Shown here piece after piece: positions 14,773-14,972 of a DNA stretch of 17,798 nt. Source of the DNA: Minisyncoccota bacterium (GTDB lineage: Bacteria > Patescibacteriota > Minisyncoccia > 2-02-FULL-40-12 > GWA2-44-9); the NCBI GenBank assembly GCA_017992005.1, contig JAGOPO010000016.1, forward strand, positions 1 to 17,798, in the 5' to 3' direction. Each line of letters begins with the position of its first letter. Position 1 is the stretch's first letter. The notes beneath the pieces were generated by a model. That model made no database searches and was not told where the DNA came from. It was given only the letters and a program-made list of their open reading frames with translations. The translations under genes were made by a program, and so were the position numbers.

Positions 14773-14801
14773 TTGACGCTAAGTCATCCCGATATTATAG
14801 T
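14773..14801 (+). promoter_or_regulatory. Near-consensus sigma70-type promoter (TTGACG, 17 nt spacer, TATAGT) driving the downstream mini-gene
   Basis: TTGACG at 14773-14778 and TATAGT at 14796-14801, exactly 17 nt apart. A GAGAGG Shine-Dalgarno motif and the ATG at 14820 follow. Confidence 0.5.
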
Positions 14802-14819
14802 CGTTGAGAGGTACTGAGT

Positions 14820-14933
14820 ATGAAAGAGGGAAATCCGGTTGGGAGTGAGAGCCCGTATTCGCCATGGAAAGAGTTCGTCTTCATTCTGTCGATTCTCAGT
14901 TGCGTGGCTCTGTACGTGAAGTGCACAGGGTAG
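14820..14933 (+). CDS. Small hydrophobic peptide (37 aa, MKEGNPVGSESPYSPWKEFVFILSILSCVALYVKCTG) with one predicted TM helix. It is a self-contained mini-gene.
   Basis: Upstream are a strong promoter (14773-14801) and a GAGAGG Shine-Dalgarno motif 8 nt from the ATG. The ORF is 37 codons, and an intrinsic terminator immediately follows (14943-14972). It was missed by the >=60-aa ORF track. Confidence 0.4.
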   Translation: MKEGNPVGSESPYSPWKEFVFILSILSCVALYVKCTG

Positions 14934-14942
14934 TGGTCTTCC

Positions 14943-14972
14943 AAGCCCCGATTTGTTCGGGGCTTTTCTTTT
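14943..14972 (+). terminator. Rho-independent terminator after the mini-gene
   Basis: AAGCCCCG-atttgtt-CGGGGCTT followed by TTCTTTT. Confidence 0.65.

Follow-up and report, generated by a model that had tools for sequence, protein, structure and literature searches.

Does the space between the gene of a major vault protein (MVP) homologue and rpsB, the gene of ribosomal protein S2, hold a small gene of its own in a Minisyncoccota bacterium? We analyzed a stretch of 17,798 nucleotides (nt; 17.8 kb) from the genome of this organism (GenBank assembly GCA_017992005.1, contig JAGOPO010000016.1), hereafter called the window. Coordinates are positions in the window, on the plus strand unless stated. 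The original prediction, made by a model from the letters of the sequence, had placed a promoter, a Shine-Dalgarno sequence, a short open reading frame (ORF), and an intrinsic terminator within 14773-14972. Sequence inspection and scans located all four where they had been placed (Table 1). Our results suggest that this mini-ORF is likely to be a genuine, unannotated gene with its own promoter and terminator, coding for a single-helix membrane peptide.

Scanning of the whole window for promoters revealed at least 10 of 12 consensus matches at three sites only, all of them intergenic and facing a gene: 16955 on the plus strand (before tRNA-Thr, in the tRNA cluster), 11864 on the minus strand (before rpmE), and 14773 on the plus strand (the mini-gene). 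Promoter-like sites showed no excess in the 2 kb around the mini-gene, with 1 found and 1.0 expected from shuffled sequences. The two strongest terminators of the window were those of MVP (the best) and of the mini-gene, and the latter is unidirectional, with no T-run after the hairpin on the minus strand. The MVP gene ends at 14715 and the hairpin of its own terminator covers 14727-14758, which sets the 5' boundary of the mini-gene unit; the rpsB start codon at 15138 lies 165 nt past the mini-gene T-tract. Judging by the position of the -10 box, transcription of the mini-gene would start at about 14807-14809, which would place the Shine-Dalgarno sequence at the extreme 5' end of the mRNA. The Shine-Dalgarno sequence and the first 15 nt of the predicted transcript were unpaired in both the minimum-free-energy and the centroid fold. 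The whole-transcript fold had a z-score of -1.55, and no RNA structure other than the terminator hairpin was evident in it. Rfam searches of the whole window at gathering thresholds returned three tRNAs only. A known RNA family at the locus was rejected after a permissive Rfam scan of 14650-15250, which gave only sub-threshold matches driven by the terminator hairpin (the rimP leader, for example, scored 29.6 bits where 47 are required).

Evidence for coding came from L003, the nearest species-level relative of the window (S2 90% identical). Upstream of its rpsB we found TTGACT-17-CATAGT, GAGG 8 nt before the ATG, the peptide MHEGSPVGANSPYSPGKELALVLSILAAVFLYGSCFGF, and a terminator. Over 37 aligned codons, 46 of 111 bases differed between the two ORFs, and the start, stop position, and frame were kept; the ORFs comprised 37 codons in the window and 38 in L003, with no frame-shifting gap. 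Twenty-two of the 37 residues were identical, 13 of them through synonymous changes. The differences fell 11/9/26 on the three codon positions, third positions being the richest (chi-square p=0.0036). Random placement of 46 substitutions was simulated 200,000 times, and no trial retained at least 22 of the 37 residues. Conservation of the reading frame in relatives, which the original prediction had proposed as a check, was borne out in L003, the proportions of nonsynonymous (pN) and synonymous (pS) differences being 0.28 and 0.84, respectively. At the level of sequence, these comparisons demonstrate that the mini-ORF is kept by selection on the encoded amino acids. The antisense frame that shares wobble positions with the mini-ORF belongs to a 161-amino-acid (aa) ORF at 14795-15280. 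This was rejected as a chance ORF: the long antisense ORF of L003 runs in another frame, with a 31-nt indel between the two.

Strain variants carrying the window allele were present on five contigs from other samples (L076, L082, L083, L087, and L088). Assemblies of ERR2985266, ERR2985263, SRR25018354, SRR25018341, and ERR14064761 yielded the allele. The ORF was identical at 114/114 nt in the four that contain it complete (L076, L082, L083, and L088), and the fifth, which is cut inside the ORF, agreed over residues 6-37. The adjoining 105 nt of non-coding sequence on the 3' side were only 82-90% identical. Perfect identity of the ORF was nevertheless rejected as proof of special constraint, as rpsB (693/693 nt) and its leader were equally identical. 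MVP and tsf were 91% and 97% identical in the same comparison. As judged from these alignments, the segment around the mini-gene is a mosaic among strain variants.

Further relatives were drawn from the same 90%-identity S2 cluster via the protein collection, and six alleles were compared: the short type of the window and L003 (37-38 aa), and the long type of L078, L080, L084, and L086 (54-62 aa). Each of the six units is flanked by rpmE or MVP on one side and by the rpsB promoter on the other, in the same orientation. All six have TTGAC(G/T)-17-(T/C)ATA(G/A)T at the same relative position, GAGG or GGAGG 8 nt 5' of the ATG, and a GCCCC...GGGGCTTT(T/C)CTT hairpin 3' of the ORF (TTTTCTT in five, TTTCCTT in L086). 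The long-type loci have the promoter TTGACT-17-TATAAT and the terminator form AAGCCCC(G/A)AC...GT(C/T)GGGGCTTT(T/C)CTT; their 5' untranslated region (UTR) is about 50 nt long, with GGAGG 8 nt 5' of the start codon. A compensatory change in the terminator stem, from CCCCG/CGGGG to CCCCA/TGGGG, was observed in L003 and L080. Synonymous sites are saturated among the six alleles, yet all of them retain the start codon, an 8-nt Shine-Dalgarno spacing, and the hydrophobic helix. The long-type proteins have an acidic, Pro/Ser/Asp-rich N-tail, a Trp, one hydrophobic helix, and a charged C-tail with K/R. The window peptide follows the same plan of polar N-tail, Trp, and one helix, to which the long forms add the charged C-tail. 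The flanking signals of the short and long units look homologous. The two types themselves were rejected as demonstrable homologues, with no tblastn match at E <= 0.05 and an hhalign probability of 10% over 13 columns, and were kept as positional equivalents only.

AlphaFold, run on the single sequence, predicted no regular structure for residues 1-14 and a helix for residues 15-36, with confidence values (pLDDT) of 91-94 across residues 21-37. Every one of the six alleles has a segment of 15-17 residues with a negative summed Hessa free energy; in the window peptide, the sum is negative over residues 19-33. The net charge of the N-tail ranged among the alleles from 0 to -6 (neutral to strongly acidic), and K or R was present in the C-tail of five of the six, the exception being SCFGF of L003. 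Because of this charge distribution, the positive-inside rule most likely favors an N-out/C-in orientation. The original view of the locus as a stand-alone transcription unit for a small peptide, polar at its N-terminus and with a single hydrophobic helix, is supported.

We propose that the near-consensus sigma-70 promoter would yield a short mRNA of about 165 nt with the Shine-Dalgarno sequence at its 5' end, and that transcription would stop at the intrinsic terminator 10 nt past the stop codon. In the product, the N-tail (residues 1 to about 15) would be disordered, Pro/Ser-rich, and slightly acidic, and the C-terminal hydrophobic helix (from about residue 15/19 to 36) would serve as an anchor in the cytoplasmic membrane. 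Insertion would be post-translational, because a peptide about as long as the ribosomal exit tunnel would be released before co-translational targeting. By analogy with the Pf3 coat protein, it may be YidC-assisted or spontaneous. The peptide would most likely act as an abundant accessory or envelope-exposed membrane component.

The distribution of the mini-gene was narrow. In L027 and L077, whose S2 is 88-94% identical to that of carriers, rpmE directly faces rpsB and the mini-gene is missing. L027 was nested among carriers in an S2 neighbor-joining tree, which implies that it lost the mini-gene. Because some clade members have lost it, the mini-gene appears to be dispensable. Outgroups (S2 66-82% identical) also lacked it, with rpmE-rpsB in L038, L004, L030, and L005 and MVP-rpsB in L090. 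In the genomes compared, this small-membrane-protein locus is thus confined, by sequence, to one genus-level clade of Paceibacteria-type Patescibacteria.

Within the clade, the small protein evolves about 6-20 times faster than S2. Nonsynonymous divergence (dN) between the window and L003 was 0.36 for the peptide and 0.058 for S2, and the long-type pairs except L084/L086 gave 0.19-0.44 compared with 0.017-0.023 for S2. In every pairwise allele comparison pN was lower than pS, which indicates relaxed but purifying selection on the small protein. The pair L084 (1344-1572) and L086 (177-400) showed a different pattern. Their S2 proteins are identical (693/699 nt; synonymous divergence, dS, 0.04) and their flanks are 97-100% identical, whereas the small ORFs agree at only 50% of nucleotides and 48% of amino acids. 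The divergent stretch begins abruptly halfway through the 5' UTR and ends just as abruptly at the terminator. This difference is an allele replacement by recombination and not the result of local point mutation. The N-tail was the most variable part of the protein among the alleles. Both upstream contexts (MVP and rpmE) were found with both peptide types, which indicates recombination or mosaicism at the locus. The locus is thus a small evolutionary system that combines a clade-restricted orphan gene, lineage loss, fast protein evolution, and one clear allele replacement.

The neighborhood upstream of the mini-gene also varied. In the window and in L080, the 2.7-kb MVP gene separates rpmE from the mini-gene, and it is absent in L003, L078, L084, and L086; in the more distant L090, MVP stands directly before rpsB. 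The MVP homologue at this locus is, from these comparisons, a presence/absence polymorphism. In the window, the MVP segment is bracketed by the heptamer ATTGACG (11882-11888 and 14772-14778), the left copy of which aligns with the -35 region of the L003 mini-gene. The rpmE promoter (11826-11864, minus strand; TAGACA-17-TGcTATACT, 10/12 matches plus extended -10) is conserved in L003, L078, L084, and L086, where the rpmE and mini-gene promoters stand back to back with -35 boxes about 6 nt apart. The independent assemblies of L003, L004, and L006 break 400-460 nt upstream of rpsB, in or beside rpmE. Repeated contig ends near rpmE fit strain-level heterogeneity that confuses assemblers.

The relation of the unit to rpsB was examined through the rpsB promoter and leader. 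The extended -10 element of rpsB was conserved as TGGTAGAGT in L003 and as TGCTAGGAT or TGCTAGTAT in L080, L084, and L086, and was also present in relatives without the mini-gene (TGTGGTATTGT in L027 and TGTGGTAGGAT in L077). The rpsB leader of about 100 nt, with the motif AACTCAATGATTTG, contains a closing helix (15049-15056/15120-15127), a second helix (15058-15061/15113-15116), and an inner hairpin (15062-15068/15090-15096). In 11 aligned sequences, 97.5% of cells were paired and 6 of 19 pairs showed compensatory changes (for example, A-U to G-C, 5 versus 5), values that none of 500 shuffles reached. The leader was also found in L003, L027, L038, L004, L029, L030, L031, L005, and L078-L086, and the permissive Rfam scan of 14650-15250 gave no match for it. 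rpsB has no canonical Shine-Dalgarno sequence before its ATG. We regard the leader as a candidate for S2 autoregulation that is specific to this lineage of Patescibacteria. In L027, L077, L038, and L090, the rpsB promoter and leader serve rpsB without any mini-gene. Comparison of these loci shows that the mini-gene forms a unit separate from the promoter and leader of rpsB. The original prediction had argued from the terminator and the distance to rpsB that the unit is not an attenuator; the conserved rpsB promoter and leader and the relatives lacking the mini-gene strengthen this argument. A mini-gene promoter that serves a longer rpsB leader transcript, which had been named as a refutation, is very unlikely, as rpsB has its own conserved promoter downstream of the terminator.

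Two further features of the rpsB leader region were observed. In L077 (CAYHKJ010000039.1, about 790-960), an insertion of about 170 nt with self-complementary ends GAGCATG...CATGCTC occupies the apical loop of the inner hairpin of an otherwise intact leader. An extended stem, a mobile mini-element, and an intron-like insert are candidate explanations for it. In L076 (296-1147) and L082 (3001-3852), rpsB was called as a 283-aa protein, a substitution in the promoter region (GATGTATGG) having created an in-frame ATG. This extension through the promoter and structured leader is almost certainly an annotation artefact.

The mini-gene had been expected to escape standard ORF cut-offs, and indeed an exact-sequence look-up of the 37-aa product found no gene on record. 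Gene callers had skipped the mini-ORF on all four contigs with the complete ORF (L076, L082, L083, and L088). The product is thus absent from a collection of 15 billion proteins although the ORF is complete on at least four contigs of that same collection and cut on a fifth, a concrete example of small-gene loss from the annotation of Patescibacteria genomes. A word-index protein search with a 40-aa native extension of the peptide returned nothing. An exhaustive phmmer search of the 37-mer against 1.84 billion representative proteins gave one match, P0121, and did not recover the long-type proteins P0130 and P0131, which are present in that set. P0121 was rejected as a homologue: this 511-aa repeat protein matched EGNPVGSESPYSPWKEF through seven GGPVNEDEPTDPWEE repeats, a compositional artefact. 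A long-type profile searched against 5.8 billion proteins recovered nothing beyond the two sequences it was built from. L084 and L086 escaped it, which indicates that the word index under-reports the long-type family. Neither the 37-aa nor the 38-aa peptide matched a toxin family in Pfam or NCBIfam even at E<=10, and the only sub-threshold Pfam matches were single-helix membrane subunits such as FixQ and PsbT. A phage or viral origin was rejected: the window peptide had no tblastn match in phage genomes, and viral contigs, scanned with the long-type profile (A4) only, gave none either. No homologue outside the one genus-level clade was found in Pfam, NCBIfam, phage genomes, or the 1.84 billion proteins, and a literature search on small ORFs in Patescibacteria or upstream of rpsB found nothing relevant. 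Fragments by which the peptide could be detected are the tryptic EGNPVGSESPYSPWK and EFVFILSILSCVALYVK.

Several points weigh against a membrane-peptide gene. A transcription start only 2-3 nt further downstream than predicted would truncate the Shine-Dalgarno sequence, and both transcription and translation of the mini-gene are themselves predictions. The selection test comprises one pair, L003 being the sole diverged short-type (37-38 aa) homologue, together with the four long-type alleles. Homology of short and long types lacks statistical support, the link between them being position, architecture, and flanking signals. The longest uninterrupted hydrophobic core of the window peptide, FVFILSILSCVALYV, has 15 residues, which is short for a membrane span, compared with 22 residues for the AlphaFold helix. 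In the window allele, the N-tail carries a net charge of -1 and the C-tail KCTG of +1, a weak argument for topology, and we infer the proposed role purely from these features.

Explanations other than a membrane-peptide gene were weighed against these data. As a type I toxin, the hydrophobic peptide would damage the membrane and its synthesis would be blocked by an antisense or divergent small RNA. The size, the single hydrophobic helix, the stand-alone unit with its own promoter and terminator, and the patchy occurrence among close relatives would agree with this. However, a sequence scan for the antisense promoter opposite the ORF, a possibility raised by the original prediction, yielded only unconserved 8/12 minus-strand matches (14920->14892 and 15016->14988), which had no counterpart in L003 or the long-type loci. 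The terminator acts in one direction, and the predicted 5' UTR of about 12 nt leaves the Shine-Dalgarno sequence unpaired, with no structure to trap it. The near-consensus promoter has no visible brake, no Pfam or NCBIfam toxin family was matched at E<=10, and no second gene copy was present in the window or in any retrieved locus. Type I toxins such as Fst, TisB, Ldr, Ibs, and Hok usually begin with the helix, which makes the 18-residue polar tail ahead of it atypical. The suggestion of a small membrane peptide thus holds for the generic class, and its toxin-like variant is unsupported, given the missing antisense promoter, the free Shine-Dalgarno sequence, and the absence of a family match; we consider a toxin very unlikely. 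The mini-ORF might instead be an rpsB-tsf leader peptide or upstream ORF with an upstream promoter, its translation modulating read-through of the terminator into rpsB. The unit always stands directly upstream of rpsB on the same strand, and the window stop codon is just 10 nt before the stem, so that a terminating ribosome could mask the 5' arm. From allele to allele, however, this distance ranges between about 4 and 22 nt, and neither an alternative antiterminator pairing (only the terminator hairpin was predicted) nor a run of regulatory codons was seen. Moreover, the conserved rpsB promoter and the covarying leader lie past the mini-gene terminator, the same two elements occur without the mini-gene in L027, L077, L038, and L090, and selection of the peptide as a hydrophobic helix is not needed by a pure leader. 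We give this explanation hardly any credence.

The unit might also be non-coding, its promoter being a divergent partner of rpmE or a relic of MVP insertion, its terminator insulating rpsB, and its ORF fortuitous or its RNA a small RNA. The back-to-back -35 boxes about 6 nt apart in rpmE-adjacent relatives, the lack of a homologue among 1.84 billion representative proteins, and the dispensability of the gene are in line with such a by-product. Against it stand the amino-acid conservation beyond nucleotide divergence (0/200,000 simulations), the concentration of substitutions at third codon positions, and the start codon, 8-nt spacing, and helix kept in six alleles despite saturated synonymous sites. 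The RNA shows no structure apart from the terminator (z=-1.55) and no Rfam match, and the chance that the unit is non-coding seems extremely low. A polymorphic recognition or signaling peptide would expose its N-tail for strain-specific interaction with host, phage, or kin, under balancing or diversifying selection with exchange. The L084/L086 alleles, 48% identical in amino acids despite identical S2 and 97-100% identical flanks, would suit this proposal, as would the highly variable N-tails and the MVP and rpmE contexts that each occur with both peptide types, indicating recombination. Pairwise dN/dS is below 1 everywhere, though, with no direct signal of positive selection; the case is one strain pair; no receptor, processing, or export gene adjoins; and five contigs of the window's species from other samples share the identical allele (whole on four of them and truncated at residue 6 on the other). 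Such a function is a very slim prospect. A bolder extension, which we regard as improbable, is an exchangeable cassette between the conserved promoter/5' UTR and the terminator, through which strains of symbiotic ultra-small bacteria would maintain diverse alleles of a surface microprotein and swap them, for strain-specific recognition, exclusion, or phage evasion, the gene possibly having been born de novo from the rpmE-rpsB spacer. The finding of a small membrane-protein gene is solid but modest, small hydrophobic orphan ORFs being common; only the pattern of allele replacement and a possible origin de novo could lend it more weight.

Table 1. Features of the mini-gene locus in the window and small proteins encoded at the same position in relatives.
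Feature	Coordinates	Strand	Description
MVP-homologue gene (major vault protein)	11989-14715		MVP shoulder and vault-repeat domains (Pfam)
MVP terminator	14727..14765	+	14-pair stem, then TTTTTT; best terminator match of the window
Mini-gene promoter, sigma-70-type	14773..14801	+	TTGACG 14773-14778, 17-nt spacer, TATAGT 14796-14801; 10/12 consensus matches
Shine-Dalgarno sequence GAGAGG	14806-14811	+	8 nt 5' of ATG
Mini-gene coding sequence including TAG stop	14820-14933	+	37-aa peptide MKEGNPVGSESPYSPWKEFVFILSILSCVALYVKCTG
Mini-gene terminator	14943-14972	+	hairpin 14943-14965, AAGCCCCGA-loop-TCGGGGCTT, 9 pairs (6 G-C), then TTCTTTT
rpsB own promoter, extended -10 TGGTATTCT	14984-14992	+	outside the mini-gene; conserved aligned element
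Structured rpsB 5' leader	15037..15137	+	covarying helices; separate from the mini-gene
rpsB (ribosomal protein S2)	15138-15830	+	Pfam; short EF-Ts gene next downstream
L078/L079 small protein			54 aa; MTQSPKPSASEPNWWGLFLFLLMCAVVFYAMFGDYGAREEPQSKKTGIQAVSRT
L080 small protein			62 aa; MTSRTTDDLDPSPKPSTSESNWGLFLLLVLVAVVIYAIFGDYGNRDEPQSKKTGTQAVQTLD
L084 small protein			61 aa; MTGDDDYYDASPGSNGSEPRWWGLFLFVLLVGVLFYAICGDYGDRPETKSDKTGVQAVSSR
L086 small protein			59 aa; MTRGDDDEYDVSPQHSSDETNWGLVLMIVLVAVVGCAIFWDYGNTPQSQKTQTETAASE

Elsewhere in the window, the region 2078-9322 encodes a protein of 1978 aa that contains PKD, fibronectin type III, and Big domains; small proteins with dockerin and cohesin domains come next. 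By its domains, this module looks like a cellulosome-style cell-surface assembly in a Patescibacterium.

Patescibacteria have tiny genomes in which little idle DNA is expected, and much of their biology, including host-cell attachment and dependence, takes place at the envelope. The mini-gene was compared with known systems of similar design. Like the type I toxins (Fst, TisB, Ldr, Ibs, Hok, and TxpA), it encodes one hydrophobic helix in a product within the range of 19-60 aa and forms a small transcription unit of its own in intergenic DNA. Unlike them, it has no antisense RNA signal, no long structured 5' UTR, and no family match, its Shine-Dalgarno sequence is exposed, and its helix is C-terminal, behind the 18-residue polar tail. 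The major coat protein of the filamentous phage Pf3 (44 aa, N-out/C-in, YidC-dependent) offers an analogy of topology only: both have an acidic N-tail of about 18 residues, a hydrophobic helix, and a short basic C-tail, and both are too short for co-translational targeting, but the mini-gene is not in a prophage and has no sequence similarity to the coat protein. The agrD locus of staphylococci and comC of streptococci are hypervariable peptide loci inside conserved flanks. They resemble the mini-gene in population pattern only, with strongly differing alleles in similar strains and conserved flanks (L084 versus L086); unlike them, the mini-gene has no genes for processing, export, or sensing next to it, its product retains a membrane helix, and no leader-cleavage motif is visible.

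Small bacterial membrane proteins with a length up to about 50 aa, such as AcrZ, MgrB, MgtS, KdpF, and CydX of E. coli, form a functional class and not a homologous family. Like the mini-gene, they are encoded by very short ORFs, standing alone or embedded in operons, with their own Shine-Dalgarno sequence, consist of one hydrophobic helix and a short polar tail, are often missed by annotation, and are narrowly distributed. The mini-gene product differs in matching no Pfam or NCBIfam family of this kind at E<=10 and in having no transporter, kinase, or oxidase gene adjoining. It is also set apart from AcrZ-type proteins by its ultra-small Patescibacterium host and by allele replacement between near-identical strains. 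We conclude that it represents a new, clade-restricted, dispensable, fast-evolving family in a class that is itself well known, the small membrane proteins of bacteria.

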